DNA from: Patescibacteria group bacterium | Lineage (GTDB): Bacteria; Patescibacteriota; Patescibacteriia; JAHIZJ01 | Assembly (NCBI GenBank): GCA_028714495.1 | Contig: JAQTMH010000005.1 | Coordinates: 32,840-96,839, forward strand | Reading direction: 5' to 3' | Length of the DNA stretch: 64,000 bases | Part shown: positions 38,020-61,389 of the stretch, one piece after another | Layout of the letters: each line of letters starts with the position of its first letter | Numbering within the stretch: the stretch's first letter is position 1 | Notes under the pieces: generated by a model | What the model saw: only the letters and a program-made list of their open reading frames with translations | The model's database searches: none | Told to the model about the DNA's origin: nothing | Position numbers and translations under genes: made by a program

Positions 38020-39246
38020 CTATTGCTCGAAACCCCACCGAATCAATTCCTCAACCTCAGCCGCGCTTCGAGACCTGGTGCTTGAACCCAGGATAATGGC
38101 GGTAATTTCCTTATTCTGCTGATTCCTCGCCCGGCTCATCAGGCAATATCCGGCTTCGTCGAGATAACCGGTTTTCCCGCCAATCAGGTACAAATCCGAG
38201 TTAACCAGCAAGTTGGTGTTCTTTATTGTATGAACCCGTCCGGTGTTTTTCATGGTAAAGGTATAGGTCCGGGTAGTGGTAATCTGCGAGAGCGTAAATG
38301 AACGCAGTAACTGGTCTGATAGTTTAATCAAATCGCGAACTGTTGAAGTATTTCCAAGGTCTAAGCCGGTCGGTTCTGTGTATTTTGTATTTGTCATGCC
38401 TAATTCCCGCGCCTTATGGTTCATCTCATCAACAAACTCTTCGGTTGTCAGTCCGGTTGAACGAGCCAGGGCTTTGGCCGTATTATTCGCTGAGCCAACC
38501 AAAGTTGTATACAGCAAATCTTTGACGGTTAAAGTTTCGCCGGCTTGAACGTATAATTTCGCGCCGATAGCGTCGTCTTCGGGTTTCATCTCCACCACTT
38601 TGTCAAAACCCGGATTGTGGTCGAGCCAGACCAGCGCAGTCATCATTTTTGTCAGGCTGGCCATAGGCCTGATCGCGTCAGCATTGCCTTCGAAGAGCAC
38701 CCGGCCGGTTGCTTTATCCACGACAATTCCCGCAACTGAAGTAATTACCGGAGTCTCACTATCATCAGCCAAAACCGCCACTTGGGCAAAAGGAAAGGGC
38801 AAACGCGTTTTTACAGTCTCGGTTTTGGCGTCAAATTTAGCCGGCACTTTATGCCACTGGCCGGTTTGCCGGCTGTAAAAATAAAATTCCGGGTCATTCG
38901 CGGCTGAAGCATCATAGCCAGCCGTTAGGCCAACCGGATTAGTCAATATTTTCGGTTCAGCCACTTTAATATCGTACTGAAATATTTCACTAACCAGTTT
39001 TTTCCCGTCGGGTATTTGAAATTCGTCAGTCGAAAGCCTACGTAAATTCACCCAGGCTGGTTCAGCCAGCGTCTGCGGATATATGCCAACGCGCAAATCC
39101 TGACTATCCAGCGAAACGGTATATCCCTTTTCGATGGTCGGCTGGTCCAGATGCACCCACTGGTCAGTCAAAATTTCGGCTTTAGCCGGGACGATAAAGC
39201 CGATTATCCCGATTGAAATTAAAATGCCAACGCAATATTTCTTCAT
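38020..39246 (-). CDS. D-alanyl-D-alanine carboxypeptidase (S11, PBP5-like) with N-terminal extra domain
   Basis: SLTK (SxxK), SAN(N) and KTG motifs. Signal peptide. Confidence 0.75.
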   Translation of the reverse strand: MKKYCVGILISIGIIGFIVPAKAEILTDQWVHLDQPTIEKGYTVSLDSQDLRVGIYPQTLAEPAWVNLRRLSTDEFQIPDGKKLVSEIFQYDIKVAEPKILTNPVGLTAGYDASAANDPEFYFYSRQTGQWHKVPAKFDAKTETVKTRLPFPFAQVAVLADDSETPVITSVAGIVVDKATGRVLFEGNADAIRPMASLTKMMTALVWLDHNPGFDKVVEMKPEDDAIGAKLYVQAGETLTVKDLLYTTLVGSANNTAKALARSTGLTTEEFVDEMNHKARELGMTNTKYTEPTGLDLGNTSTVRDLIKLSDQLLRSFTLSQITTTRTYTFTMKNTGRVHTIKNTNLLVNSDLYLIGGKTGYLDEAGYCLMSRARNQQNKEITAIILGSSTRSRSAAEVEELIRWGFEQ

Positions 39247-42047: not shown

Positions 42048-44105
42048 TTAATAAACAATTTGAGAAGAAGCCAAAATTTCATCTTGACCGTCTTGATTAA
42101 TGTCATTAACGGTTACCAGAATTCCGTTGCGCCAGGTTTTATCAAAGGCGAAAAAGCCTGGAGTTATAGCCTTCCCTTTGTCGTTGAATATTCTGATGTG
42201 GGGACCTCCTCCTGGCCCCGCGCCTGTGACAATTTCGTCTTTCCCGTCGTTATTTATATCGCCCGAAGCCACGCTAACTCCTCCGCGGAATTTCTGATCA
42301 TAGGCGAAAAAGCTGGATATAAGTTTCCCTTCGCCGTTAAAGACTCTGACGTGCGGTCCTCCATGATATCCGGCGCCAGCGATTATCTCGTCTTTTCCGT
42401 CACCATCAATGTCGCCAAGCGCTATATTTACTCCGCCGCGAAAATTCTTAGCGTAGGCAAAAAACCCGGGATTTCTTAATTTTCCCGAAGCATCGAATAT
42501 CCTTATTTGCGGCCCGCCACCCTGGGCCGTTCCGGTAACAATTTCCAAGAGACCGTCGCCATTGAGATCGCCGGCAGCCAGATTGACATTGCGGTTATAA
42601 TTCGCGCCATAGGGATTAAATTCCGCAGTCAAAAATCCTTGGCTGTTATATATTTGCACTTTATTGCCCCGGCCAATCACGGTTTCATTGGCTTGGTCGC
42701 CGTTTAAGTCTTTTTTTATGATTCCGACACCGCCTGGATATTCACTGGTATAGGTAAAAAATCCCTGCCGCAGTGTTTGGCCTGAACCGGCAAAGGCCTT
42801 GGCAAAGGCGCCGTTGATGTATTGCCCGCTGGCAATTTGAAATTGCCTCTTCAAGAGGATAATTCCGTCATGACCCGAGAGCGTTACGGATGACACAACC
42901 TCTCCGGAATTAACCGGTGACTGCGTCCCCAATAATTTTTCATAACCTTCCCCCAAATCAACAGTTTGTTTGCTGCTGGTTGAATTTACTAAAACAATAC
43001 CGTTTTCGAAATCCCTGCGCCAGACTCCCTCAGCCACCCCGGATGATTTCGGGGAAGTTGTATTTGAAGCTTCAGTCACGGGATCGCCCAAATAGACGTC
43101 GTATTCGTCATACCACCAGGTGTCAGAATGCCGTAGGGCTCCGTAATCAAAGCTGGCAAAGCCGTTGTCTAAAAGCGTGCTAGTTAGAATATACCGCAAA
43201 GAACGGTAATCATCGGCTGTCCCGGTCGAAGATTTTCCGTTAATAATAACAACCTGCGGCGATTTCCCCTGATTCATAAAGTCGAAATATTTATGCATTG
43301 CTCCGGACCAGCCGCCGTCCAGGGCTGAAGGAAATTCTTCGATAAATCTTCCGTTGAGCGAATCGTAATATTCACCTCCTCCATTACCAACGATAATCGC
43401 GTCTTGGCCCTCATAGCTTCTAGAGATCTCCAGCATTTCAGTCATGCCGTCGTGCCAGGCCTGATTAAGCTGATCCGCAGTTTCAGCCACGCCGTCACGA
43501 TTTAAATCTAGATTGCCGCTATTCAGCCAAGCAACGTCATTCCAGACATTATCGTAAAATATCCCGTCCCAAAAACCAGTTGACATCACTTTATCATGCA
43601 TGAACCGCGGCAAATATGAAAGCCACTGTTCGCCATTGCTCAAAGGGGCGGTATTAGTTACGTTCAGCATCTTTGTGCCTGGCCAAAAAGTCACATTTCC
43701 ACCCTGACTATCAAATAGCCACCAGCCGTCTGATATCCCACTGCCCAATTGGCAGAGTGGGTGCTGGGCATCCGTAATTGTCATATGGCTATCCGGAAAT
43801 TCTTGTGACAAAACATAAGCCAAAATAATGATGTCCGGATTTAGCTCCCGCATCAATCTCAAGCTGTCTGGACTCGTGTATTGCAGCTCAATACCCAGAA
43901 CAACAGCATCCCAACGTGATAAGCTTCGAGCTTCTTCGGTGGATAAATTTGAGGTGTGATATACATTGGCCAGCCTGGGAAAATCGGCTGAAATTGTCCG
44001 CGCCGCCGTTGTCTTCGGCTTGAAACACAACAGCACCAGTAAAACCATAAAGGCCAATTGCGAAATTACCAATAATTTATTTCTTTTCTGAAATAAGAAT
44101 TTCAT
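42048..44105 (-). CDS. secreted protein: N-terminal TIM-barrel glycoside-hydrolase-like domain + C-terminal FG-GAP/VCBS beta-propeller repeats
   Basis: Five repeats of the D.NGDG.DEI..G...GGGP.[IV]R[IV]F type. The N-terminal domain shares FPRLANVY and FWPGTK with the product of 45456..46661. Confidence 0.5.
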   Translation of the reverse strand: MKFLFQKRNKLLVISQLAFMVLLVLLCFKPKTTAARTISADFPRLANVYHTSNLSTEEARSLSRWDAVVLGIELQYTSPDSLRLMRELNPDIIILAYVLSQEFPDSHMTITDAQHPLCQLGSGISDGWWLFDSQGGNVTFWPGTKMLNVTNTAPLSNGEQWLSYLPRFMHDKVMSTGFWDGIFYDNVWNDVAWLNSGNLDLNRDGVAETADQLNQAWHDGMTEMLEISRSYEGQDAIIVGNGGGEYYDSLNGRFIEEFPSALDGGWSGAMHKYFDFMNQGKSPQVVIINGKSSTGTADDYRSLRYILTSTLLDNGFASFDYGALRHSDTWWYDEYDVYLGDPVTEASNTTSPKSSGVAEGVWRRDFENGIVLVNSTSSKQTVDLGEGYEKLLGTQSPVNSGEVVSSVTLSGHDGIILLKRQFQIASGQYINGAFAKAFAGSGQTLRQGFFTYTSEYPGGVGIIKKDLNGDQANETVIGRGNKVQIYNSQGFLTAEFNPYGANYNRNVNLAAGDLNGDGLLEIVTGTAQGGGPQIRIFDASGKLRNPGFFAYAKNFRGGVNIALGDIDGDGKDEIIAGAGYHGGPHVRVFNGEGKLISSFFAYDQKFRGGVSVASGDINNDGKDEIVTGAGPGGGPHIRIFNDKGKAITPGFFAFDKTWRNGILVTVNDINQDGQDEILASSQIVY

Positions 44106-45297
44106 AATATCGCATCAGTTTTTGATAATAAATTTCCGGGCTGAACCGCTGAACGAACTTATAACCGGCCTCACCCATTTTCAGAGCCTGATTTTTATCT
44201 AAATACATCAGCTCAATCTTGCGTCGCAAATCCTCGACTGAACCTGCCTCGACTAAGAACCCGGTTTCGCCGTCGCGGATCAATTCGGGTATACCGCCAA
44301 GGCGCGTCCCAATCACCGGCTTTTTGTATGAATAAGCCTCTAATATTACCAGGGGGCAATTTTCATACCACTGGGCCGGCAAAACCGTGGCTCGCGATTC
44401 GCCAATTAACCGCCCAAGCTCTGAGCCGGTGGCGAACCCAGAAAATTCAACATTTGAAATATTTTCTTTTTTGGCCTTTTCTTTCAAAAGCTTCTCCTCG
44501 GGACCGCTGCCAACGATTTTTAGCTTAACGGGTAAATCCTTGACGGCGTCCAGCAATAGGCTGACGCCTTTTTCCTCTGACAATCGGCCATAGTAGAGGA
44601 GGTAATCTCCGGTTTCATACGCGGGATGGTTTTCCAGCTTGATAAAATTTGCCAGATGATTGATTTCGATCACCGGCAGATCCCACTCGCGCACCTTTTT
44701 TATCAAAAATTGGCTTGGGCTGATGAATAAATCCACGTTGTCCTCATAGATCCGTAGCATCTTATGAAAATACATTTCAAAAGCCGCCAAGAATGAGGCC
44801 ACGTAAGAATTTTTTACGCAACGATGAAAAGCGCAGGCAAAATAGTTATAGCCCTTGCTCCGCTCGCAAATCTGGCCGTGGCTGTACATGGAATAATGCG
44901 GGCAGAGCAACTTGTAATCGTGAAGCGTCTGGACTACCGGAATATTCCGACGTTTTAATACGGACAAAATTGATGGTGAAATTTGATGATAAATATTGTG
45001 AATATGGCAAATATCAGGTCTTTCTTCCTTGATTAATCGGCCCAGTTTTCGGCGGGCCTCAAATGAATAAAACATCCGAGCGGCCGTCCTCAAACCCTGC
45101 CAGTCCCAGCGAACTTTTTCGAAATCAACCTTTGAAACAAAGTATTTGGAATAAGGCGAGGGCAAATTATTTTCGTGCTGCATCGAGAAGACCACGACTT
45201 GGTGGCCGTGCCTTTCCAGCATTTCCTTCAAATCAAAAAATTGCTTTTCCGCTCCGCCCTTCAGGAAGTAAAATTTATTGATCAGCAATACCTTCAT
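44077..45297 (-). CDS. glycosyltransferase family 4
   Basis: MKVLLINKFYFLKGGAEKQ N-terminus and a GT4 C-terminal E..LEA motif. Confidence 0.75.
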   Translation of the reverse strand: MKVLLINKFYFLKGGAEKQFFDLKEMLERHGHQVVVFSMQHENNLPSPYSKYFVSKVDFEKVRWDWQGLRTAARMFYSFEARRKLGRLIKEERPDICHIHNIYHQISPSILSVLKRRNIPVVQTLHDYKLLCPHYSMYSHGQICERSKGYNYFACAFHRCVKNSYVASFLAAFEMYFHKMLRIYEDNVDLFISPSQFLIKKVREWDLPVIEINHLANFIKLENHPAYETGDYLLYYGRLSEEKGVSLLLDAVKDLPVKLKIVGSGPEEKLLKEKAKKENISNVEFSGFATGSELGRLIGESRATVLPAQWYENCPLVILEAYSYKKPVIGTRLGGIPELIRDGETGFLVEAGSVEDLRRKIELMYLDKNQALKMGEAGYKFVQRFSPEIYYQKLMRYYEILISEKK

Positions 45298-45455
45298 ATC
45301 TATATCTTAACATTTGTTTAACAAAAGAGTATAGCAGATAATTTGGCCTTTGTCAATCCGTATCATATCAACGCTTGACATATCGGGTAGATAGTGTATA
45401 TTTATACGTTCGGTAGCTGTCAGCAAATTCAAAACCTATAAAGGGAGAGTGGCCA

Positions 45456-46661
45456 ATGAGAAAGATGTGTTGGTTGGTTTGCCTGTTCGCCGGCATCATG
45501 TTGGTTTCTACGGGTTGCGCTCCTGGACCCAGGGTCCTGACGAGACAATACCCAAGGCTGGCCAACATTTACCTGACGAACTCTCTGACCGATGAGCAGG
45601 CTCGAGCCCTAGCCCGTTACGATCTGGTGGTGCTGGGACTCGAAAACCAGCACAACAATCCGAAGCCGCTTCAGCTGATCCGCCAGACTAACCCCGACTG
45701 CCGCCTGATCGCCTACGTCTCGACTAACGAGTTTCCTGAAGGAAGCTACGCGAAGAACGAGGATGCCAAAGGTCCTTGGCATGATCTGAGAACGCGTTTC
45801 CGGGAACGCCACTTTCTTTGCGCACCCAACGGCGAGTATGCGTCCTTCTGGCCGGGCACCAAGCCCTACAACTTCACCCTGCCGGAAATCGCCGACACGC
45901 TCGTGAACTTCGTCAGCGAGGAATTCGATTGGCGCATTTGGAATGGGGTTTTCTGGGACAATGTCTGGTCGGATGTCTCCTGGTACAATAACGGCCAGGT
46001 CGACGCCGACCTTGACGGAAAACCCGACAACATGACCGTGTTCAACTCACGATGGATTTACAACCTGAACCGTCTTATGGGTCTGAGCCGCTATCGTCTC
46101 GGCCCCGAACGTCTCGTCGTCGCCAACGAGAGCCTAGACAACATGGGCCAGTGGCTGATTAACGGCCGGCTGTTCGAGGGTTTTCCTAATACCCTCGGCG
46201 ACAGATCGGCCGAAGGTCTTGAGCATCTGCTTGACCTCTACAAGAAGTTCTCGCGCGACACCTGTTCACCCTCCCTGACCATCGTTCACACCGAGGCCAA
46301 TCCAACTGATAGCACCGCGGTTCTCTTCGGCCTGACATTCGCGCTTCTCAGTGATGGCTACTTCGCCGTCGACCACGGCCCGAATCAATCGGATATCCCA
46401 GGTGATACCGGATGGCACGACCGTCTCTGGTGGTATGACGAATACTACCAAGACATCGGATTGCCGCTGGAGGATTCCTACTGTCAGGGATCGCATGTCT
46501 GGACGCGCGAATTCCAGAAAGCAGTGGTTATCTGGAATCCCAATTACTTCGCAATCGACGCGAAGTTCTCGCTCCTTGACGGCAGCTCTATCGCTGTCAC
46601 CGTCGCACAACGTACGGGTCTGATCTACAAAAAGTCACTTATGCCCGGTTCACGCCAGTGA
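45456..46661 (+). CDS. lipoprotein paralog of the TIM-barrel GH-like domain of 42048..44105; high GC (about 56%), likely horizontally acquired
   Basis: Lipobox signal (MLVSTGC). YPRLANIYLT and FWPGTK conserved with the neighbouring gene. GC3-rich codons in an AT-rich genome. Strong SD AAGGGAG. Confidence 0.55.
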   Translation: MRKMCWLVCLFAGIMLVSTGCAPGPRVLTRQYPRLANIYLTNSLTDEQARALARYDLVVLGLENQHNNPKPLQLIRQTNPDCRLIAYVSTNEFPEGSYAKNEDAKGPWHDLRTRFRERHFLCAPNGEYASFWPGTKPYNFTLPEIADTLVNFVSEEFDWRIWNGVFWDNVWSDVSWYNNGQVDADLDGKPDNMTVFNSRWIYNLNRLMGLSRYRLGPERLVVANESLDNMGQWLINGRLFEGFPNTLGDRSAEGLEHLLDLYKKFSRDTCSPSLTIVHTEANPTDSTAVLFGLTFALLSDGYFAVDHGPNQSDIPGDTGWHDRLWWYDEYYQDIGLPLEDSYCQGSHVWTREFQKAVVIWNPNYFAIDAKFSLLDGSSIAVTVAQRTGLIYKKSLMPGSRQ

Positions 46662-46750
46662 GCCGGGTTTTCTTATTACCGAAGAATTGACAAAAAATGT
46701 CTCTTTATAGTACCATACTCAGATTAATGATTTTGAGGTACAATATCCTT

Positions 46751-47956
46751 ATGCGAATAGCCTTTCTTGCCCACAGCTTTCCCTACCCCGCGGAAAAGGA
46801 CGGGCACACCTTAATTCTCTATCATTTACTCAAGGAACTCTCCCAAAGGCATAAGATTACCTTGTTTTGTTTTGGCGATAAAAATGATCGGATCAACATA
46901 AAGTGTCTCACTGAATTTGGTGTTTGCGTAAGAATAATTGAGCGGCCAAAACGTTCCTTGTTCCTCTATTACCTCTCAAAAATTTCCAGAAAAATGGCTT
47001 GGTTTCAGTATCGTCTATTCACCAATGAGATGGTAAAAGAGGTTGAGACAATTGATAATTGCCCGGATTTTGATTTGGTCTGCGTCCATTCTCCCTTTGT
47101 CTCCGCCTATCTCCAATATTTCAAGCATAAACCCGTGGTGTTTACCTACATCGACGCCCTCTCATCTTGGTACCAGCAATTCGCCTCAGTGACCGCTAAC
47201 CCGCTAAAAAAAGTACACTATCTGTTTGAGGGCCATAAGGCCAGTCATTTGGAACGTGAACTATCAAAAAAGATGTTTGATACAATCGTCGTCTCAGAAA
47301 TTGATAAAAAAATAATTTCCTGTCTTTCTCCAGAAGCGCCAATATCAGTTATCCCAAACGGGGTTGATCTTGATTATTACCGGCCCAGCCTCACCCCGCC
47401 GGATCCAAACGTGATAATTTTCACTGGGACAATGGATTATCCGCCCAATGCCAGAGCGGTCCTCGATTTTTATAATGAGGTCTGGCCCCTTTTGATTAAG
47501 GAACGTCCTGAATTGCGCTGGCTGATTGTTGGCAAAAATCCCACGCTGGATGTTTTCGAGCTGCAGTCGAAAGACGAAAATATCAAGGTTACCGGTTACG
47601 TCAAGGATATCCGTCCATGTCTCTGGCGTTCGGCAGTTTACGTGTCACCGCTTTCCTTGGGCACCGGCTTTAAGAATAAAATCATCGAAGCCATGGCTTG
47701 CGGAAAGGCCATAGTTGCCAGTCCGACCAGTCTTTCAGGCTTAACCGCTGAACATGGAAAACACCTCCTCATTGCCAACACCCCCCAGGAATATCGAGAG
47801 CATATTATAGCTCTTCTGGCTAAACCCGACCGGCGGCAGAAACTGGAAATCGCCGCTCGAAAACTCGCCGAACTATTCAGCTGGTCCCAAACCGCCCGAC
47901 AGTATGAAGAGGTCTTTACCCGGGTTTTATCGCGTCACCATGACTCAAAAAAATAA
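46751..47956 (+). CDS. glycosyltransferase family 4
   Basis: MRIAFLAHSFPYP N-terminus and GFKNKIIEAMACGKAIVAS at the C-terminus. Confidence 0.75.
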   Translation: MRIAFLAHSFPYPAEKDGHTLILYHLLKELSQRHKITLFCFGDKNDRINIKCLTEFGVCVRIIERPKRSLFLYYLSKISRKMAWFQYRLFTNEMVKEVETIDNCPDFDLVCVHSPFVSAYLQYFKHKPVVFTYIDALSSWYQQFASVTANPLKKVHYLFEGHKASHLERELSKKMFDTIVVSEIDKKIISCLSPEAPISVIPNGVDLDYYRPSLTPPDPNVIIFTGTMDYPPNARAVLDFYNEVWPLLIKERPELRWLIVGKNPTLDVFELQSKDENIKVTGYVKDIRPCLWRSAVYVSPLSLGTGFKNKIIEAMACGKAIVASPTSLSGLTAEHGKHLLIANTPQEYREHIIALLAKPDRRQKLEIAARKLAELFSWSQTARQYEEVFTRVLSRHHDSKK

Positions 47957-49310
47957 CTCTTGGCCTTTAATTATCTTCTCGGCGTTGGTGCTGGTGCCAC
48001 TTCTCTATTTTTTGATTTTTACTAATCCCAGCTGGATTCAAATCGCCCAAATCGCCGTCCTGATCGTAATCCTGCCAATTTTCTTTTGGTATGAAGAGCT
48101 GGGCTTTTTCGCCTTGATAGTGCTTCGACCCGCCCTTGATGTTTTCAGCGAAAACGTCCTGGTTAAGATTGGCCAGTTTCCCTTAAACCTCTCGTCGGTT
48201 GTCAGCTTGATTACCATTGGCTGGGCAGCCTGGTATTTCCTGCGCCATCGGGTCAAAATCTGGAAGCAGCCCCTATTCTGGCCGTTCGCTATTTTCGCCC
48301 TGCTGGGTGTTATTTCTTTTGTCTATACCGAGTCCCTAAGCGCTACCCTGAGGGAAGTCTTGCGCCTGGGCAGCATTCTCTTTTTATTCCTTATGGCTGG
48401 CAATATTCTCGACAGCCGAGAAAAATTTCAGCGCCTAATCAAATCAATCGGCCTTTCTCTGATTATTCCGCTGCTGGTCGGAACTTATCAGCTATTCAGC
48501 AATACGGGCCTGAGCTTTGCCGGAGTAAATAACCGGATCTATGGCACTTTCGGCCATCCCAACGCCCTGGCTTTTTACCTGGTTTTATCGCTCGGTTTGT
48601 TTATTTCCTACTATTTTCAAGAAAAGACCAAAAAATCAAAGTGGTTCCTGGCCGGCCTGGGCATGATGTTTCTTTTTTTACTCCTGACTTATACTCGCGG
48701 CGCCTGGATTGGCTTTCTTATTTTTTTAATGATTCTGGGTTTTATGCGCTTCCGAAAAATCGTCATCGCCCTTGTCATAGCCGCGATTTTATTGATCACC
48801 ACCGGACCAATAATCGACCACTTTACTTTCAATCAATATAATTTTTCTTTTACCTCTATCCCGGTTATTAAACGGTTGACTGACGAAACATCTGATGAGA
48901 GTTCGATTGACTGGCGGCTGAAAGTCTGGAGCGATATGAGCCGCAAAATTACCGAGCGTCCTCTTTTCGGCTATGGCCTGGGCGCGTTTCCGGTCATCCG
49001 GGAGCAATCGGTCAAAGGCTTTTTTGAAAGCACCGAGGCTCATAACGATTACCTGCGCCTGGCTATTGAACTTGGGTTTGTCGGCTTGTTTTTCTATGTA
49101 CTGCTCCTGGGAAAATTACTATATAATTTAGTTCGTAATTATCGAGTGAGCCATGATTTATCACAGAAATCCTGGATTTTGGGCGGGATTGCTTTAACCA
49201 TAGCTTTTGCCGCGATGAGCTTTTTTGATAATCTTTTACAAGGTACGGCTGTTATGTGGGCTTTTTGGTCTACTATGGCCGTGATCCAGAAATTACCATC
49301 ATTGAAATAG
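47940..49310 (+). CDS. O-antigen ligase/polymerase family membrane protein (Wzy_C domain)
   Basis: About 11 TM helices. An YTRGAWIGF loop typical of Wzy_C/WaaL. Confidence 0.7.
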   Translation: MTQKNNSWPLIIFSALVLVPLLYFLIFTNPSWIQIAQIAVLIVILPIFFWYEELGFFALIVLRPALDVFSENVLVKIGQFPLNLSSVVSLITIGWAAWYFLRHRVKIWKQPLFWPFAIFALLGVISFVYTESLSATLREVLRLGSILFLFLMAGNILDSREKFQRLIKSIGLSLIIPLLVGTYQLFSNTGLSFAGVNNRIYGTFGHPNALAFYLVLSLGLFISYYFQEKTKKSKWFLAGLGMMFLFLLLTYTRGAWIGFLIFLMILGFMRFRKIVIALVIAAILLITTGPIIDHFTFNQYNFSFTSIPVIKRLTDETSDESSIDWRLKVWSDMSRKITERPLFGYGLGAFPVIREQSVKGFFESTEAHNDYLRLAIELGFVGLFFYVLLLGKLLYNLVRNYRVSHDLSQKSWILGGIALTIAFAAMSFFDNLLQGTAVMWAFWSTMAVIQKLPSLK

Positions 49311-49345
49311 CCTATTTTCATTTTTTTGGCAATATCGAAAACAGA

Positions 49346-49470
49346 AATTAAAAATGTAAAATTCAAAATGAAAAATTATTGTATCCCGCCTTTCGACTCC
49401 GCTCGAGGCGGGCTATTTGTCATTGCCTAAAGATAAAATAGGTAATGCATTTTGAATTTCTTCAAAAGAC
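49346..49470. mobile_element. MITE-like mini-element: 23-mer AATTAAAAATGTAAAATTCAAAA + CCCGCC(N18)GGCGGG hairpin + degenerate inverted copy of the 23-mer
   Basis: The 23-mer is identical to 61758-61780, and its reverse complement is at 62206-62228. Confidence 0.4.
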
Positions 49471-49771
49471 CAAACTTAAGTTCTGGTTGAGAAGGCTTTA
49501 GCCTGGGTGGGAATTACTTGTCCTTAACCTTGATATTAATAAAACTCCCAGAGCCACTGTGCTCTGGAATTGAATAACGTTTTTAATGGTAATAAGGGCC
49601 TTACCCGCCTACGGTTAGTATTTAATTTAGCCTTTTATTCATTGCTCCATCCGACTATTACCAACTAGGTAATATCAGGGGCCTACGGCGGGTTATTTGC
49701 AGCGGTTACGATATGGTGAATACTGAATAGATTATCTTTGTTGGCGATATGATTGTTTTGTGGAAGCAAAT

Positions 49772-49816
49772 AAAAAAAGAGCCCGTTCGTTTCGAGATGA
49801 AACTACTAGGGCTCTT
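49772..49816 (-). terminator. intrinsic terminator of the GC-island operon (AAGAGCCC..[GTTTCgagatGAAAC]..GGGCTCTT + U7 on the minus strand)
   Basis: Stem and T-tract seen directly in the sequence, 27 nt downstream of the stop of 49843..50319. Confidence 0.55.
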
Positions 49817-49842
49817 CGAAAGAGCTGCTGAACTCGGCCTCG

Positions 49843-54487: not shown

Positions 54488-55981
54488 TCAGGCGATATCA
54501 AAAATTTTTATTTTGCTGATGGCCGCTTCAGCCAATCTCATCCTTTCGCGGCTCTGGGCGTAAAGGGTATAGGTGGGATCGCCCTCTTTAACAATGCCTC
54601 CGATCCTTTGATGAAGATGCAGACCGGCTAATTTTTCTTCGGGCGCTCCCAGAAGTCGGGCGATCTCATCGATGGCCATATCGTTGACTTTAACGATTCT
54701 GCCATCCTTTTGAGCAAAGCACCGATGTTTGATCGCTCCCATAGTCAGATCATCCGCCTTAATCCTCGGGTTGCCGCCCTGCAACTTGATAATGCTTTGC
54801 ATCTTTTTCCAGGCCTGGCCTGAATCAAGAATTGCCTGGGCGCGAGAGCGACCCTGGCCACGTTTTACTTTGCCGCAGAGTTCAAGAAGTTCGCCGGCTA
54901 AGAGTACCGATTTTTTTTCGAGATCCCGCGGTCTTAGGGGGTGGCGTTGGAGAACTCTCAAAACATCCCTGGCTTCGAGCGCCGGTCCGACTCCCCGGCC
55001 GATCGGTTCAAGCGCTTCCGACATTCTAACCTTTAGCTTCATGCCAAACCTTCTTCCAAGATATAAAAATTTTCGTTCAATCTCCCAAGCCAGTTTTATA
55101 TTCGGTATCTTGGTATTCGGACCAACCGGCATATCGATCACGAGGTATTTAATACCCATGGCAACCTTCTTGGCCATAATACTGACAATCATCTTGTTGT
55201 ACGGCTCAATGCCCAATGGGTGCGAGGCTCGAATAATTCGGTCATCCGCCGGCGCAATATTTAATTCGCCGCCCCAAAGCAAACAACAGTTATTCTTTTT
55301 CACGAATTTTTTAATATTTTCCACGGAATGCTCAACCGGCGCCAGCACTTCCATCGTATCCGCTGTACCAGCCGGCGAGGTTACGGCTCTCGAAGAAGTT
55401 TTTGGAATAATTAAGCCAGTCGCCGCCACAATCGGCACCAGTACCATTGAAGTCCGGTTGCCGGCCAAACCGCCGACCGAATGCTTGTCCACGACCTTGC
55501 CGGGAAAATAAATAGTATTTCCGGTTTCAGCCATAGCCTTGGTCAAAAAATAAAGTTCTTCGTCAGAATAATGCCGGGCAAAACTACTGGCCACGAAATA
55601 GCTAATTTCACTCCGACCCAGTCGGCGATCAACAATGTCTTTGATGATTGAATAAATTTCTTTATATGACAATTCATGGCCGAGTAATTTCTTGATTATC
55701 GCTTTAATCGAGGCCGGCCTAGACAAAACCTTGACCTGGACTATTTGCCCCTTTTTCAAAGGATAGTCTTCCCAAATTTCCCGAAACAGACCAATTTCAC
55801 CGGGTTTGACCCTAGAGCTAGTGAAATCAGCCTCGGCAATCAGTTTATGTTTGCCCCATCTAATTTCCAGATCGTCATTAGGCTGAATCCCCAAATTTTT
55901 CGCTTCTTTATCCCGCAAAACAGCCACGTAAGCTCCCTCAGCAACAAAATCCAATTGTTTGCTTTTTAAGAAAAATGGCAT
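54488..55981 (-). CDS. AMP phosphorylase (archaeal-type thymidine-phosphorylase-family DeoA)
   Basis: The thymidine-phosphorylase core (SSRAVTSPAGTADTMEVL) with an archaeal AMPpase-type N-terminal extension. 497 aa. Adjacent to RuBisCO. Confidence 0.8.
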   Translation of the reverse strand: MPFFLKSKQLDFVAEGAYVAVLRDKEAKNLGIQPNDDLEIRWGKHKLIAEADFTSSRVKPGEIGLFREIWEDYPLKKGQIVQVKVLSRPASIKAIIKKLLGHELSYKEIYSIIKDIVDRRLGRSEISYFVASSFARHYSDEELYFLTKAMAETGNTIYFPGKVVDKHSVGGLAGNRTSMVLVPIVAATGLIIPKTSSRAVTSPAGTADTMEVLAPVEHSVENIKKFVKKNNCCLLWGGELNIAPADDRIIRASHPLGIEPYNKMIVSIMAKKVAMGIKYLVIDMPVGPNTKIPNIKLAWEIERKFLYLGRRFGMKLKVRMSEALEPIGRGVGPALEARDVLRVLQRHPLRPRDLEKKSVLLAGELLELCGKVKRGQGRSRAQAILDSGQAWKKMQSIIKLQGGNPRIKADDLTMGAIKHRCFAQKDGRIVKVNDMAIDEIARLLGAPEEKLAGLHLHQRIGGIVKEGDPTYTLYAQSRERMRLAEAAISKIKIFDIA

Positions 55982-55985
55982 TTTA

Positions 55986-57239
55986 TTATTTCCAGTGTTT
56001 TAGAGCTGCCTTTAGGACCGGGCTATCCTCAGCCTGTTTGTTGATCGGCGTGCCTTTGACCGCTGCTAGGACCGCTTCTTTTACTGCCTGGGCTCCGGCT
56101 AGAGTTCCGTTCGGATGGCCGTGTATTCCACCGCCAAAGTTTACTATCACATCCGGTCCGGTAATTTTATAAAGCCGTGCGATTAATCCCGGGTGAAGTC
56201 CGCCTGAAGCGATCGGCATTACTTTTTTAATCCGGCCCCAGGGCTTTTTTAAAAACGAATTGATTGCCACGGTCTCTTCGACTGAACCTGCCATTTTCCC
56301 GACCACGGTGCCAGTATGAAGCTGGTCAATGCCCGCCAGCCGCGCCAGCTTCGCGATAACCAGCATTGAAATTCCGCGCTCCGGATCGCGGGTAATCGCT
56401 GAATGCATTGCCCGGTGGCCATGGAGAATCAAACCGAGCTTGGCTTGGCGCAAAGCCTGCAAGCCAGAAAAGCCGATCGTCATGATATCAACCATGGCGC
56501 AATTGCCACCCTGGCTCTTGATATACTTTGCCCGGCGGATCATTTCGTCAGCCGGCGCCGTGATATTAAACGCGCAGATTTTCATTTCGCCGGTTTCTCG
56601 CTCAGCCCGGCGAGCCAGCCTTAGGGTTTCTCTGACTCTGTTTGTAAATGGATTGAACTTCAAGTCAGTTAAATTTTCATCGTCTTTGACCAAGTCGGCT
56701 CCGCCTTTGAAGCAGAGGTAGGCAAATCGAGCGTGCGCTCTCCAGCTCAAACCGATTTTCGGCTTCATAATCGCTCCGATTAAAGGCCGGCCCGGTATTT
56801 TTATTTTTCGGCGTACGCCCGCTATACCAAAGGCTGGTCCGGCAAAGGAATTGATATAAACAAGGGGCAGATCCAAATCTACCAGCCGCAATTTTGAAAC
56901 CACCTTCATGCTGAAAATATTTCCAGACACGCTCGACAAAAGCTGAGGTATGTTTCCTGGTTCAAAGAGCTCAATGGGATAAGCGATTCTAGCTAAATTT
57001 TTTTTAGTATTCAGGCCAATAACCTTAGCCGAAAGTCTTTTAAAAACCGACTCGCTCAACGTTCCAACTTCGGTCCAGGTGCCAATTGATGACTCGCCAG
57101 CCACAATCTGGGCGATTTCCTTTAAAGGCAACTTCGATTCAATTCGAAAAGTTGCCACCAGGTGGCTCTTTAAGTCAAGCCGCCGATTCAGCGCTAAATA
57201 ATTTGATTTGGGGCGGGCATTTTTCATTGTAAAATCCAC
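55986..57239 (-). CDS. rbcL: ribulose-1,5-bisphosphate carboxylase large subunit, form II/III
   Basis: GAIMKPKIGLS and GGADLVKDDENL active-site motifs. 417 aa. Confidence 0.9.
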   Translation of the reverse strand: MDFTMKNARPKSNYLALNRRLDLKSHLVATFRIESKLPLKEIAQIVAGESSIGTWTEVGTLSESVFKRLSAKVIGLNTKKNLARIAYPIELFEPGNIPQLLSSVSGNIFSMKVVSKLRLVDLDLPLVYINSFAGPAFGIAGVRRKIKIPGRPLIGAIMKPKIGLSWRAHARFAYLCFKGGADLVKDDENLTDLKFNPFTNRVRETLRLARRAERETGEMKICAFNITAPADEMIRRAKYIKSQGGNCAMVDIMTIGFSGLQALRQAKLGLILHGHRAMHSAITRDPERGISMLVIAKLARLAGIDQLHTGTVVGKMAGSVEETVAINSFLKKPWGRIKKVMPIASGGLHPGLIARLYKITGPDVIVNFGGGIHGHPNGTLAGAQAVKEAVLAAVKGTPINKQAEDSPVLKAALKHWK

Positions 57240-58156
57240 GGGTAGTACTTTTTTGCGTATTGTCTCACTTGCCTTGGCTCGATCAAACCAAATTCAGTCA
57301 CTAAATAAGTTATTTGATTGGCCGGTACTTTATCAAAGGCGAAATTCAGAATTTCCAGGCCAGCTGGCGCGCCAGCCCAAACCTCCTTAGCCGGCCGTTT
57401 CTCTATTTTCACCGGTATCTGGCCGACGCATTTCAATAGGCTGGCCACGATGTAAACTGGCACATGATTGACGCTGGCCGAGAGGGTTAAGCCAAAGCTG
57501 CCTATTTTATTTAACACTGAACCGTCGGGCATAATCGCGTCTGCCCCGATGACAACCGAATTCATCATTAAATCGCGTCCTGACGCGGGACTGATCAAAA
57601 ATGGTCCAGCGCTATCGACAATCATAGTGACTGGAATTCCCTTGGTCCGAAGCGCCTTGGCGGTAATTCGTCCCTGAAAAAGTGGCCGGGTTTCAGAAGT
57701 GTACACGTGGAATTTCTTTTTTCTGTGCGTCTCAATCAGAAGCTGTTCAGTTGTCGAAGAATGGCAATGGGTAAAAATCCTATCCCCGCTTTTAATGATT
57801 GCCCGCCCCAAAAGGCTGATTCGACTCTGAGTTTGCGCCAGCAGTTTAATGAATTCCTGGGCGCTTTTTTTCAGAATAAAAACCGAGGGCTGCTGGTTGA
57901 TCCTCTTCCAGACAAATAATAGTCCGTTTCTAGTCAGAGGTTCGGTCGGACGACTGTGCTGAAGGAGATAAGCCATCGCTACCTTCATTTCGTGTTTCCA
58001 GTTTTGCGATTTTTTTATCTTTAGGTTCGAACCAAACCGTACATAGGCTTCAAGCGTAGCTCGGGCGACAGCGGTGGCGCCTTGAATTTTTATGCTCTGG
58101 ATGTCCCGGATAACGCCGTTAAAAGAGTTGTAATGCATAATTTTAAAATTATTCAA
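57224..58156 (-). CDS. ribose-1,5-bisphosphate isomerase (e2b2 / eIF-2B-like family)
   Basis: 310 aa eIF-2B alpha/beta/delta-like protein immediately upstream of rbcL. Forms the canonical AMP-salvage trio. Confidence 0.75.
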   Translation of the reverse strand: MNNFKIMHYNSFNGVIRDIQSIKIQGATAVARATLEAYVRFGSNLKIKKSQNWKHEMKVAMAYLLQHSRPTEPLTRNGLLFVWKRINQQPSVFILKKSAQEFIKLLAQTQSRISLLGRAIIKSGDRIFTHCHSSTTEQLLIETHRKKKFHVYTSETRPLFQGRITAKALRTKGIPVTMIVDSAGPFLISPASGRDLMMNSVVIGADAIMPDGSVLNKIGSFGLTLSASVNHVPVYIVASLLKCVGQIPVKIEKRPAKEVWAGAPAGLEILNFAFDKVPANQITYLVTEFGLIEPRQVRQYAKKYYPWILQ

Positions 58157-58209: not shown

Positions 58210-58578
58210 CTATTTTGGTAAATACCTCTTAATTTTATTGACCAAATCCGCCAGCTTGACATTGGCTTTGACATAGTAGTCTTTGGCGCCTAAATCTTTA
58301 GCCTTTTTTATCTCGGTTTTCTCGCCAAAATTTGAGAGAACAATAATGGGCAGATTCTTCCAAGTCTTGTCTTTTTTGATCTCATCGAGAACCGCGTAGC
58401 CGTTTTTCTTGGGCATCAATAGATCTAATAATACAACCTCCGGTTTAAAAGACCTTATTTTTTCCAGCCCCATTTCACCGTCCATTGCCGTCTCGACCTC
58501 ATAGCCGCTTTTCCTAAGCTTGTCGCTTAAGGCCTGTGAAAGGAATGCTTCATCTTCGACAACAAGTACTTTTGCCAT
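58210..58578 (-). CDS. stand-alone response-regulator receiver protein (CheY-like)
   Basis: VLVVEDE..LLDLLMP..K receiver motifs. 122 aa, no output domain. Confidence 0.8.
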   Translation of the reverse strand: MAKVLVVEDEAFLSQALSDKLRKSGYEVETAMDGEMGLEKIRSFKPEVVLLDLLMPKKNGYAVLDEIKKDKTWKNLPIIVLSNFGEKTEIKKAKDLGAKDYYVKANVKLADLVNKIKRYLPK

Positions 58579-58580
58579 GG

Positions 58581-58958
58581 CTACTTCTTGGTATATTCGT
58601 GGATCTTGGTTTTTATCTCTTCTAGATTGGTCTTAGTTTTGACCAAATATTCCGCCACTCCGAAATCCCTTGCCTTTTTGATATACGAGGAATCGTCTAA
58701 ATTGCTCAGGATTAACACTGGTATTTCTTTGGTCGTGGGATCGGCCTTCAACTTTTCTAAGACCTCAAATCCGCTCATCTTCGGCATGATTAAATCAAGT
58801 AGAATAATGTTCGGCTTCTTGGTTTTAGCGAATTCTACGCCGTCATTACCGTTTCTGGCCAATTCAATAATAAAATCGTTTTTTTCCAGCTTGGTTTTTA
58901 GCGCTTTGCTAATTATATCCTCGTCCTCAACAACGAGTACGGTTATTTTGTTGTTCAT
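58581..58958 (-). CDS. stand-alone response-regulator receiver protein (CheY-like)
   Basis: VLVVEDEDIIS..LLDLIMP motifs. 125 aa. Confidence 0.8.
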   Translation of the reverse strand: MNNKITVLVVEDEDIISKALKTKLEKNDFIIELARNGNDGVEFAKTKKPNIILLDLIMPKMSGFEVLEKLKADPTTKEIPVLILSNLDDSSYIKKARDFGVAEYLVKTKTNLEEIKTKIHEYTKK

Positions 58959-58962
58959 ATTA

Positions 58963-61389
58963 TTAAATTAATGTCTTTTCGCCTTCCCGCCTGGTGCTTC
59001 CGGCGATTGGCAAGGTAAAGAAGAAATTGGTGCCCCTGCCTTCTTCCGATTTAAACCAGATCTTACCGCCTGAGGCTTCGACCACCGATTTCGCGACATA
59101 GAGCCCCAAGCCAGTTCCTTCGGTCTGCAGAGTAATGACATTATCAGCCCGGAAAAACTTTTTAAAGACTTTTGACTGCTGGGATTTTGGAATGCCGACG
59201 CCCGTGTCAAAAACTTCAAAAGTCAAAAACTTCGCATCCCGACTGACCCGAACTCCCAATTTGCCTCCCTCAGGCGTATACTTAACGGCATTTGAGATTA
59301 GATTCTGAAATACCTGTCGGATCAACTTTGGATCAATCTTTATTTGGGGAGTACCGCCAGATAATTTTTCAAATACCGTCTTCTGTTTTTTCTGTTTGAT
59401 TATATGAGCCAGTTCAAAAATCACGCTTTCGATCATGCCATCGATATCGGTCAGTATCGGCTCTATGGCAATTGTGCCAGATTCGATGCGCGAGACATTC
59501 AAGAGGTCGTTGACCAGAGCGATCATTCGCTCGTTGGACTTGGTAATATGATCGATATATTCAGACTGCTCCTTATTTAGCTTTCCCGCGTCACCATCCA
59601 TGAGCATCTCGAGAAACCATTTCGAGGCCGACAATGGCGTGCGCAACTGATGCGAGGCGACAGACACGAACTCTGATTTCATCTTATCAATCTCTTGTTC
59701 CTTTGTCACGTCCTTAATAACTACCACGCCACCGTGAATTTCACCGCTGGGATCTTTTAAGGGTGTCGCGGTAATAGTCACGGGTATCCCTTTTTTCTTT
59801 TTGGTTACGACGGCGAATTCCCCGGTTCCGGTAGCCACTACGTTACCGGTCTCGATCGCCTTGATAATCGGATTTACATCCTTGTTTTTATCGGTCAGCT
59901 TGATGTATTTTAGATTAATAATCGCGTCTAAATCTTTTCCAATTATTTCCGGGATCCGATAGTCAAGCAAGTCGCTGGCCGCTTCGTTGCAAGCGATAAA
60001 CTCTTTATCTTTATTCAAAGCCAATACGCCATCACCGACATTCTGTAAAATTGATTCAGATTTGTTTTTTTCATCTTCAATCGAATGTCTGGCAATTTCC
60101 AGATCCCTTACCTTTTGGCGTAATTCTTGAGTTCGTTCGGCTACCAGCGCCTCCAATTTTGTATAGTACTCGTGAAGTTTGTCCTTCATGTTGATAAAAC
60201 TATGCGTCAAGTCGCCAATCTCGTCTTCTCTTTCCGGCGGCTGGATATCGATATCCAGATTACCATGACTTAGCCGGTTAGCGTTAATCGCCAGTTCCTT
60301 CAACGGCCGAGTGATAGATTTAACCAGAAATCTTGTGATAAAGTAGATCAGCACAAACATACCCACGCCAATAATCAAAAATCTTAGACGGATTGAACCG
60401 ATGCTGCTGGTGACTTCTGATTCAGGTATGCCCCTGGCGATGCTCCCGATTACTTCATTCTCAAAATTTCTGATCGGCTGATAAGCCACTAGGTACCATT
60501 CATCGAGTTCAAACGCTCTACCGGAAAAATCTTTTTGGGTTATATAAACAGTATTAACTATTTCTTCGGAAGCCAATGTTCCAATCGCCCGCTTGTTAAT
60601 ATTCTGATATTGCTGCGTAGTGGCGGCCCGGGCATCATAGAGATACAGCGACGCGATACCCCTGCCTCGCTGGACCAAACGATCGAGTATTTCATTATTA
60701 TTATTCAAGAGAACTCCCCCAATGATCGCACCGACAACCTCACCGTCATTGATTATCACAGTGCCCGCCGCCATCACCAAACCATCATGTTCATCTTCCT
60801 GGGTTCGCCATCCTTGTTTTGACTTTTCCGTGGGTATTCTATTTATCAAAGCTTTTTTAGCCAACTCCTCAGAATGGGCTTGCATTTCTTCCTGGGTGAT
60901 TATTTCAACCGATTTGCCAGTGGTTTTATTCTTAATTACATTTTCTACATAACCCTTGAGTGATATTTTCTGTCCAACTTTAATATTTTCACTACCGACT
61001 AAGATGTTTCCTTTTGAATCTACAATATCAACAAAACTCAATCCTTGGGCTTCCTGAGTATTTTTTATTTGTTTCTTAAGAGCGACATACTCGGATAATT
61101 CCTCTAATTTTGAAATGTCTTTTTCAGCAGCTAACGTATTCACTGTTTGGACAAAATCTTGGCCTCGGGCTAATGATTCAACGTCAGTTAGAATTTGATC
61201 ATGACTCTCACTGAACACAATTGAAAATGTCTCAAGCGTGGCATTAACGCGTTCCTGTACTTCCGTTTTCAGACTGCCAGTAAAAGTCGAAATTATCATG
61301 TAAACAAAAATTGCGATTACGCAACCGGCAATCGCCACCATGTAATAGAGAAAACGCGTGTTTAAACTCGAAGAGAAAAATTTCGCCAT
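58963..61389 (-). CDS. sensor histidine kinase (TM - periplasmic sensor - TM - HAMP - PAS - HisKA - HATPase)
   Basis: H-box SHQLRTPL, N-box NLISNAVKYT and G-boxes DTGVGI and GTGLGL. Two TMs bracket a ~300-aa extracytoplasmic domain. Confidence 0.85.
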   Translation of the reverse strand: MAKFFSSSLNTRFLYYMVAIAGCVIAIFVYMIISTFTGSLKTEVQERVNATLETFSIVFSESHDQILTDVESLARGQDFVQTVNTLAAEKDISKLEELSEYVALKKQIKNTQEAQGLSFVDIVDSKGNILVGSENIKVGQKISLKGYVENVIKNKTTGKSVEIITQEEMQAHSEELAKKALINRIPTEKSKQGWRTQEDEHDGLVMAAGTVIINDGEVVGAIIGGVLLNNNNEILDRLVQRGRGIASLYLYDARAATTQQYQNINKRAIGTLASEEIVNTVYITQKDFSGRAFELDEWYLVAYQPIRNFENEVIGSIARGIPESEVTSSIGSIRLRFLIIGVGMFVLIYFITRFLVKSITRPLKELAINANRLSHGNLDIDIQPPEREDEIGDLTHSFINMKDKLHEYYTKLEALVAERTQELRQKVRDLEIARHSIEDEKNKSESILQNVGDGVLALNKDKEFIACNEAASDLLDYRIPEIIGKDLDAIINLKYIKLTDKNKDVNPIIKAIETGNVVATGTGEFAVVTKKKKGIPVTITATPLKDPSGEIHGGVVVIKDVTKEQEIDKMKSEFVSVASHQLRTPLSASKWFLEMLMDGDAGKLNKEQSEYIDHITKSNERMIALVNDLLNVSRIESGTIAIEPILTDIDGMIESVIFELAHIIKQKKQKTVFEKLSGGTPQIKIDPKLIRQVFQNLISNAVKYTPEGGKLGVRVSRDAKFLTFEVFDTGVGIPKSQQSKVFKKFFRADNVITLQTEGTGLGLYVAKSVVEASGGKIWFKSEEGRGTNFFFTLPIAGSTRREGEKTLI

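Follow-up and report, generated by a model that had tools for sequence, protein, structure and literature searches.

The 64-kb stretch of DNA analysed here (hereafter the window) carries two genes that share the glycosidase domain GHL15: one encodes a stand-alone protein of 401 aa, the other a protein of 685 aa in which the domain is followed by FG-GAP repeats. The 401-aa gene is much richer in GC than its surroundings, particularly at third codon positions (GC3), and an earlier note on this DNA had read it as a xenolog, placed beside a resident paralog by horizontal replacement or augmentation. We consider it probable instead that this gene, which lies in an envelope-glycan locus, is an ancient stand-alone paralog, passed on vertically, of the GHL15 domain carried by the 685-aa protein, and that its GC offset is conserved and tracks the composition of the host. 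Both paralogs would belong to a conserved Patescibacteria locus for an envelope glycan of the Wzy/Wzz type. The GC richness would then be a gene-specific compositional equilibrium, kept through long evolution at about 0.19 GC3 above the host background, and the same offset would be common to neighbouring fast-evolving genes for secreted proteins and lipoproteins.

Two GHL15 paralogs, one of them GC-rich

Both open reading frames (ORFs) were found where the earlier note had placed them, and their relationship is beyond doubt. BLASTP aligns residues 1-361 of the 401-aa protein with residues 14-374 of the 685-aa protein, that is, with its N-terminal domain as claimed (173 bits, E 2e-52, 119 identities over 388 positions, 31%); at this E value, chance similarity is ruled out. 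Of the motifs listed as shared, both proteins contain YPRLANIYLT/FPRLANVYHT and FWPGTK, while the third (L.VLG[IL]E) reads AVVLGIE in the 685-aa protein. The two genes are indeed close neighbours, but the gap between them is 1.35 kb rather than 2 kb, with one glycosyltransferase gene of the GT4 family in between.

Recalculation gave the 401-aa gene a GC content of 0.556 (GC1/2/3: 0.560/0.420/0.689), in line with the figure of about 56% and the GC3-rich codons that had drawn attention to it, compared with 0.449 for the whole window. Its GC3 lies ~4.7 standard deviations (sd) above that of the other genes (mean 0.470, sd 0.047; 55 window ORFs, with four outliers excluded from the mean), which excludes a uniform composition, and the GC step, followed in segments of 200 nt, coincides with the start and end of the coding sequence (CDS). 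Codon usage differs accordingly from that of native window genes (TTC 0.84 vs 0.30, TAC 0.83 vs 0.33, ATC 0.73 vs 0.32, AAG 0.67 vs 0.31), and the 401-aa gene contains no ATA or TTA codon at all. The 685-aa gene (42048-44105, minus strand) had been described as AT-rich, which it is not for this genome: its GC content (0.467) sits at the window average, with a GC3 of 0.477. Two paralogous copies of one domain, one host-like and one GC3-rich, are thus confirmed, and both copies are present in related genomes too. This arrangement is no artefact of a chimeric assembly, as two independent Logan assemblies (SRR22315509 and SRR22315508) match both junctions of the 401-aa gene at 100%. A third sample contains a 96.3% variant of the region with an identical arrangement of the flanks.

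Genes in this part of the window are ordered as follows: GT4 (-), DUF11 protein (-), GHL15-FG-GAP (-), GT4 (-), stand-alone GHL15 (+), GT4-type transferase (+), Wzy_C (+), three genes for secreted proteins (-), and Wzz (-). In the related loci L005, L006, L008, L088, and L091, a stand-alone gene occupies the same slot, divergent from the GT4 gene that precedes the fused gene and 5' of the transferase and Wzy genes, and in L007 and L090 it adjoins the same GC-rich trio of genes as lies further along the window. L032, L041, L070, and L075 have more distant stand-alone copies, which lie upstream of their fused gene. The window protein is 60% identical to its orthologue in L005, 39% in L006, and 36% in L008, and this range (36-60%) is similar to or below that of the flanking genes. 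In L091, an NCBI assembly, the gene order of the window is reproduced in full as far as the RuBisCO gene, with proteins 37-78% identical to those of the window. GC3 along that locus (0.594, 0.380, 0.405, 0.701, 0.661, 0.651, 0.427, 0.467, 0.426) displays the same mosaic as in the window, namely high, native, native, high, high, high, native.

A neighbour-joining tree, built from 183 domains with no outgroup, groups 20 stand-alone proteins of the window type into one clade (bootstrap 88), whose sister is a clade of six with the distant copies (bootstrap 97), and no fused protein falls inside the stand-alone clade. Stand-alone orthologues are separated by 1.1 to 2.5 amino-acid substitutions per site, and their clade is roughly equidistant (1.5-1.6 substitutions per site) from all fused proteins. 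In the seven genomes that have both paralogs, distances between stand-alone copies follow those between fused copies (Mantel r 0.87, exact p 0.0002), the former evolving faster at most distances. With more than one amino-acid substitution per site, synonymous sites should be saturated according to standard substitution theory, and the composition of the gene would therefore be an equilibrium under a continuing force.

The GC offset itself supports this view. GC3 of the stand-alone gene exceeds the local background in 13 of 13 genomes, by 0.11-0.29 (mean 0.19, sd 0.05), and it follows that background (0.33-0.65) with a slope of 1.05 (r 0.90). The fused copy stays within 0.06 of the background in all but one of ~80 species genomes. 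As the value of a donor would be fixed, and as amelioration would make it converge on that of the host, an offset that remains constant argues that the GC-rich codon usage is no donor footprint.

Several observations nevertheless weigh against vertical inheritance with a conserved offset. Because the tree has no outgroup, its root is not fixed, and both a duplication inside Patescibacteria and a very old transfer can be accommodated. The 13 genomes include close relatives (L032/L075 and L007/L090) and thus represent fewer than 13 independent lineages, while backgrounds on short contigs rest on two to four genes. Some exchange also occurs, as the slot lacks the stand-alone gene in two loci only, L004 (6579-8649) and L011 (7261-8622), where it is occupied by an ASH-domain lipoprotein gene with a GC3 of ~0.77. 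Finally, the stand-alone gene of L089 (protein P0010; 246-5520) lies outside a glycan locus and adjoins Bro-N and type IIG restriction-modification genes; it is still GC3-rich there (0.625 vs 0.47-0.51). Over long time spans, then, the slot swaps one GC-rich gene for another, as L004 and L011 illustrate, and to this extent the idea of replacement in the earlier note holds.

Transfer, codon selection, and recombination as possible sources of the offset

Were the 401-aa gene a recent import from an organism of ~56-60% GC that had retained the codon usage of its donor, its outlying GC3, its sharp borders, and its apparent own promoter and terminator would all be readily explained, as would codon choices resembling those of a moderately GC-rich genome (TTC, TAC, and AAG predominate; neither ATA nor TTA is used). 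The gene does share with the compositional islands commonly taken as horizontally acquired a sharp, gene-sized anomaly of GC and codon usage. Unlike them, however, it keeps its position among relatives with the same offset, co-diverges with a resident gene, and tracks host GC instead of a fixed donor value. It also lacks mobility marks: neither a tRNA gene nor an Rfam match was found in the window, and the gene, whose neighbours are glycosyltransferases, is not flanked by convincing repeats, direct or inverted. Compared with the 96% strain variant L003, the gene has diverged by 3.9% and its flanks by a similar 2-3%. Searched exhaustively with HMMER, 1.84 billion representatives yielded 534 relatives, of which the best (60%, 46%, and 42% identity) are all members of the stand-alone clade, followed by Patescibacteria-type fused proteins; the very best lies itself in a syntenic Patescibacteria locus. 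No homologue nearer than the clade members was detected in a word-indexed search, in the HMMER search, or in 185,579 species genomes. We thus give hardly any credence to a recent import, and the transfer proposed in the earlier note, if recent enough to have left the composition of a donor, is contradicted by the shared slot, the co-divergence, the host-tracking GC3, and the lack of a donor. A single ancient transfer from a GC-rich donor into the common ancestor, with amelioration still incomplete, would agree with the near equidistance of the stand-alone clade from all fused proteins, and the unrooted tree leaves room for an outside origin of that clade. Yet at 1.1-2.5 substitutions per site synonymous positions must have turned over many times, so that standard amelioration would have erased any donor signal, and the same offset is observed in hosts whose GC3 ranges from 0.33 to 0.65. 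In addition, the nearest outside relatives are fused proteins of Patescibacteria, GC-rich bacteria being far more distant, and we regard this scenario as very improbable. It is also improbable, if less strikingly so, that GC-rich surface-protein cassettes form a mobile pool among Patescibacteria, recombining via the conserved flanking glycosyltransferase genes and owing their composition to a phage or plasmid reservoir. Such a pool would account for a slot content that varies by lineage (GHL15 in the window, the ASH-domain lipoprotein in L004 and L011), for the one member found beside Bro-N and restriction-modification genes, and for the self-contained appearance of the 401-aa gene. An offset that scales with host composition is not expected of a shared reservoir, though, and at every depth sampled the gene co-diverges with the resident paralog. 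Furthermore, 2.9 million viral contigs and 50,697 phage records yielded no viral or phage relative, the only plasmid matches are Rhodococcus genes with 26-29% identity (more distant than the resident paralog), and among the lineages examined there is none in which the gene is compositionally at home.

If the gene was inherited vertically, its GC richness calls for a continuing cause. Selection on codons or messenger RNA of these genes, whether through high expression with preferred codons or through rare GC-ending codons that pace translation or couple it to tRNA state, is one candidate, which we find rather unlikely. It has in its favour that the shift is confined to the CDS, with AT-rich spacers, that promoter-like and Shine-Dalgarno-like sites are near consensus, and that the shift is strongest at two-fold codons (C-ending +0.28, G-ending +0.23, vs +0.08 and +0.04 for C and G at four-fold codons, in 9/9 genomes), with ATA, TTA, and CTA avoided. 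Highly expressed genes usually evolve slowly, however, whereas the GC-rich genes are the fastest-evolving of the locus (37-46% vs 47-78% identity between the window and L091). DnaK, taken as a control because it is typically highly expressed, has a GC3 within 0.05 of the background or up to 0.10 below it in 6/6 related genomes, while GC3 outlier genes in the DnaK-bearing loci lie 0.15-0.5 above the background, which makes an expression-linked codon bias unlikely; neither the window nor the loci of its relatives contain a ribosomal protein or EF-Tu gene. Synonymous choice alone is also insufficient, since GC1 and amino-acid composition shift too: in 8/8 within-genome comparisons GC1 is higher in the stand-alone gene than in the fused domain, and in 7/8 FYMINK residues are fewer. 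A different view of the site classes is that GC-rich genes have a similar GC fraction in all of them (~0.6-0.7 in the window), and that it is the native window genes that differ between two-fold sites (AT-rich, 0.35) and four-fold sites (balanced, 0.55).

Recombination offers another candidate. Recombining bacterial genes are reported to be enriched in GC at all codon positions and to use GC-ending codons other than the preferred ones (Lassalle et al. 2015, PMC4450053), and recombination landscapes are described as conserved across orthologues (PMC11879095). The genes described here resemble this pattern in their GC-ending, non-preferred codons, in an offset conserved across orthologues, and in being fast-evolving surface genes; that the slot has exchanged one GC-rich gene for another in L004 and L011 also fits. 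Our leading, though tentative, proposal is that the offset is maintained by GC enrichment linked to recombination, at a hot spot of surface-protein genes that is itself conserved. Two points count against this cause. Conversion tracts should ignore gene borders, yet spacers are AT-rich, and native composition prevails in the two genes that separate the GC-rich patches; and the offset (+0.11 to +0.29 GC3), which is gene-bordered and known here from composition, appears large beside the differences in PMC4450053. Spacers give a mixed result on a regional GC shift: those adjoining GC-rich genes of the window are as AT-rich as the others (0.39 vs 0.38; 0.35-0.39 beside the 401-aa gene), and those of L007 and L004 are slightly GC-richer. 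Between the window and L003, changes in the 401-aa gene are balanced (21 GC-to-AT and 23 AT-to-GC) but unpolarised, because the closest outgroup is merely 60% identical. An omega of 0.24 in the same comparison indicates that the gene is under purifying selection.

As a separate observation, native genes of the window and of L016, L027, L036, L049, L076, and L078 have a GC fraction of 0.17-0.36 at two-fold sites and ~0.30-0.55 at four-fold sites. A strong transition bias, or selection acting on two-fold codons in most of the genome, could underlie the low two-fold GC of native genes.

Offsets of this kind are not restricted to GHL15 genes. In 72 loci, picked because they contain a fused GHL15 gene and therefore informative on such loci rather than on the rest of the genomes, a simple caller predicted 1056 ORFs, of which 69, spread over 33 loci, have a GC3 more than 0.12 above the local median. 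These outliers comprise 20 of the 36 ORFs with a lipobox-like start, 27 of the 318 with another signal-like start, and 22 of the 702 others. Several families, unrelated to one another, are outliers in at least two genomes: they include the families of the 616-aa and 289-aa proteins encoded in the second GC-rich patch of the window, as well as lipoproteins with MopE-type, Dicty_CTDC, or DUF7151 repeats. Possibly, many Patescibacteria hold a set of fast-evolving secreted-protein and lipoprotein genes near the envelope-glycan locus (the stand-alone GHL15 gene, the 191/289/616-aa trio, and several lipoproteins rich in repeats) at ~0.2-0.3 GC3 above their genome, even across deep divergence, through a process that has gone unrecognised. 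Transfer followed by amelioration and ordinary expression-linked codon bias would both fail to account for it; candidates are an unusually strong GC bias linked to recombination and limited to surface-protein genes, or codon-based control of translation. Some outliers, such as the Dicty_CTDC protein gene of L049 (+0.52), may be true imports. Our literature search retrieved nothing relevant on GC-rich surface genes in Patescibacteria and, as far as it shows, a conserved compositional mosaic is undescribed for this phylum.

These results have practical consequences. Odd composition alone is no proof of gene transfer at this locus, and composition-based detection of transfers would wrongly call the 401-aa gene and its GC-rich neighbours foreign in each of these genomes. 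Patescibacteria are known almost only from metagenome bins, from which segments of odd GC, routinely suspected as contamination, are trimmed, and genuine genes for surface proteins may be discarded in this way. The GC-rich genes specify the exposed exterior of organisms living in attachment to other cells. An active cause is needed for a gene-sized GC offset when it outlasts synonymous saturation and follows the drift of host GC. A locus in which native and GC-rich genes alternate, and which is kept in many genomes, is a clean test bed in bacteria for telling biased gene conversion apart from selection acting on base composition.

Enzyme family and likely role

The earlier note had guessed at a TIM-barrel family of the GHL type, which proved right: both proteins match Pfam GHL15 (PF14885) well above its curated gathering threshold of 27 bits (55.6 bits for the 401-aa protein and 104.7 bits for the 685-aa protein), each covering positions 1-270 of the 271 of the profile. 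An AlphaFold (AF2) model of the 401-aa protein, computed from ten stand-alone homologues, is a (beta/alpha)8 barrel followed by a C-terminal beta domain (pLDDT 83.2, pTM 0.81). Foldseek searches of this model against PDB returned GH168 or GHL15 structures for all of the top 17 matches (E 9e-19 to 5e-14, TM 0.58-0.71). The 401-aa enzyme thus adds a member to a fold family already known.

The CAZy counterpart of Pfam GHL15 is GH168, which contains endo-alpha-1,3-L-fucanases (Fun168A/D/E, PbFucA; PDB 8ya6, 9jof, 9joo, 8rg5, 9nhf). Like the 401-aa protein, for which export is predicted, these enzymes are secreted and combine a (beta/alpha)8 barrel with a small beta domain. For the GH168 enzyme WfGH168_II, the catalytic residues are D172 and E243, with Y99, N101, N218, and W332 conserved (PMC12534559). 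The catalytic pair and the neighbouring Asn and Trp align with D168, E241, N224, and W326 of the window protein, D168 (in FWDNVW; FxD) standing opposite DGVFMD/DGAFID of GH168 chains and E241 (in NGRLFEGFP; FE) opposite MFEHY; this correspondence is one of profile alignment rather than of side-chain superposition. D168 and E241 (codons 45957-45959 and 46176-46178) are invariant in 183/183 relatives and N224 is nearly so; the 685-aa protein has D185 and E256 in the same columns. Resemblance to solved enzymes is otherwise distant, with 13-18% identity in structural alignments to GH168/GHL15 chains and weak profile hits (best E 1.6e-06 and 3.6e-06, others 0.006-0.03). A few other positions of the 183-domain alignment split by paralog group (N91 vs Q/E, H278 vs N, A304 vs S), which would fit differing details of substrate.

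Both proteins are predicted to be exported. The 401-aa protein starts with a signal peptide that ends in a lipobox-like STG-C21 (Cys21: 45516-45518), and MRKMCWLVCLFAGIMLVSTG-C21 agrees with the relaxed PROSITE-type lipobox pattern. The protein appears to be a lipoprotein; an equivalent cysteine is present in P0002, P0006, P0007, and P0008 and absent from P0004, P0005, P0009, and P0010. The 685-aa protein has a hydrophobic N-terminal anchor. Judging from sequence, the two would be exported retaining glycosidases acting on a surface polysaccharide. Most likely they cut or trim such a polymer, and probably the one made by the products of the adjacent GT4, Wzy, and Wzz genes.

The setting differs from that of known GH168 enzymes in two respects: the host is a groundwater-type Patescibacterium instead of a marine degrader of algal fucoidan, and the gene lies in a glycan synthesis locus instead of a polysaccharide-utilisation locus. 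Since its neighbours are GT4, Wzy, and Wzz genes, the substrate is probably not a sulfated fucan, and the genomic context suggests a different, self-made glycan. Glycoside hydrolases encoded in exopolysaccharide synthesis loci, such as PslG (GH39), PelA, and BcsZ (GH8), trim the polymer of their own cell. By context, the window enzymes would be comparable to these, as predicted exported glycosidases whose genes are surrounded by those for glycosyltransferases, a Wzy-type polymerase, and a Wzz-type protein, although their fold family is not that of PslG or BcsZ and there are here two paralogs, one of them fused to an FG-GAP propeller. With this pair of enzymes, the GHL15/GH168 fold likely extends to the handling of the cell's own envelope glycan.

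Distant GHL15 homologues, annotated as 'putative glycoside hydrolase', are carried by the Rhodococcus plasmids NZ_CP096038.1 and NZ_CP113801.1 and by four others (conjugative or mobilizable), from which it follows that the family travels on plasmids in Actinobacteria.

Organisation of the locus and neighbouring genes

The window is a piece of core Patescibacterium chromosome, with genes for MreB, MreC, PBP2, several aminoacyl-tRNA synthetases, Ddl, Alr, ClpB, PriA, and LexA. In line with the polysaccharide-processing enzyme suggested in the earlier note, the two paralogs (Table 1) both lie inside a polysaccharide locus. The 401-aa gene looks like a self-contained transcription unit: a promoter-like site and a terminator-like hairpin flank it, hence its apparently separate transcription, and a further promoter-like site, found in the same kind of pattern scan, comes after the hairpin.

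Table 1. Positions of the two GHL15 genes, of candidate expression signals, and of neighbouring genes in the window
Feature	Position	Strand	Remarks
Second GT4 glycosyltransferase, 373 aa	39327-40448	-	Downstream of 685-aa gene; host-like composition
DUF11-domain envelope protein, 490 aa	40566-42038	-	Downstream of 685-aa gene; host-like composition
685-aa protein, residues 420-685: FG-GAP / VCBS repeat region	42048..42848	-	Pfam FG-GAP_3 and FG-GAP matches
685-aa protein, residues 1-419: N-terminal signal anchor and GHL15 domain	42849..44105	-	GC3 0.49, host-like; putative catalytic Asp185, Glu256
GT4 glycosyltransferase, 406 aa	44077..45297	-	Divergent from 401-aa gene; 29-nt overlap with start of 685-aa gene; GC3 0.528, host-like
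Mirror promoter-like site for divergent GT4 gene	45356-45328	-	Consensus scan, pattern only
Promoter-like site: TTGACA, 16 nt, TATATT	45375..45402	+	Upstream of 401-aa gene; 11/12 consensus matches; pattern match only
Shine-Dalgarno-like site AGGGAGAG	45441..45448	+	7 nt 5' of ATG at 45456; read off the sequence
Stand-alone GHL15 / GH168-like glycosidase, 401 aa	45456..46661	+	GC 55.6%, GC3 0.689; putative catalytic Asp168, Glu241
Terminator-like hairpin (11 pairs, 7 G-C) and T-run	46643..46678	+	Spans stop codon of 401-aa gene; pattern only
GT4-type glycosyltransferase (419 aa) and Wzy_C polymerase/ligase-type membrane protein (468 aa)	46697..49310	+	GC3 0.495 and 0.537, host-like; between GC-rich patches
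Second GC-rich patch: three secreted/lipoprotein genes, 191, 289, and 616 aa	49843..53114	-	GC3 0.745, 0.786, and 0.669
Wzz-type chain-length determinant, 303 aa	53263..54174	-	GC3 0.438, host-like; borders GC-rich trio

Conservation extends to most of these neighbours. The 406-aa GT4 gene is found at the same place in L004, L005, L006, L008, and L088; the order of the DUF11 and 373-aa GT4 genes is kept in L004 and L008, and that of the 419-aa transferase and Wzy_C genes in L006, L008, and L091. Orthologues of the 191/289/616-aa trio are GC3-rich as well, in L004, L006, L007, L011, L090, and L091. Pfam and NCBIfam scans of the trio gave the 616-aa protein, labelled 'hypothetical protein' at NCBI, a weak LysM match only, and its family comprises five clusters among 5.8 billion.

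The slot of the 401-aa gene varies further among relatives in that a methyltransferase gene of native composition adjoins the ASH-domain lipoprotein gene in L004, and that GHL15 and methyltransferase genes occur together in L005. A second variable slot, also of native composition, lies between the last GT4 gene and ClpB: it holds a D-Ala-D-Ala carboxypeptidase gene (Peptidase_S11) in the window (38020-39246) and a methyltransferase gene in L004 (14855-15607). Blocks of GC3 outliers (+0.2 to +0.5) are located upstream of the fused GHL15 gene in L009 (629-5606), L042 (191-5283), L049 (40-1812), L078 (566-5218), L023 (991-5187), and L038 (61-2571), and several genes in these blocks code for repeat proteins rich in Cys (Cu-binding_MopE, Dicty_CTDC, DUF7151).

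The GHL15-FG-GAP locus of the Patescibacteria type is also carried by many species-representative records that bear the title 'uncultured Gammaproteobacteria bacterium' (L008, L011, L014, L016, L017, and others), and these titles look like placeholders; synteny of the L004 kind was checked in L011 only among these records.

Between the convergent Wzy and 191-aa genes, the window has a non-coding gap of 532 nt (49311-49842), compared with 80-131 nt in relatives. It contains two terminator-like hairpins, and a search of it for an ORF, a protein remnant, or an Rfam family brought up none of note. Beyond the Wzz gene, genes for AMP phosphorylase-like, RuBisCO large-subunit, and IF-2B-family (ribose-1,5-bisphosphate isomerase-like) proteins are adjacent (54488-58156, minus strand), a nucleotide-salvage arrangement known from Patescibacteria and archaea, which L091 likewise has straight after Wzz. 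They are followed by genes for a Cache/HAMP/PAS histidine kinase and two single-domain response regulators (58210-61389) and by the LexA repressor gene (62295-62951).

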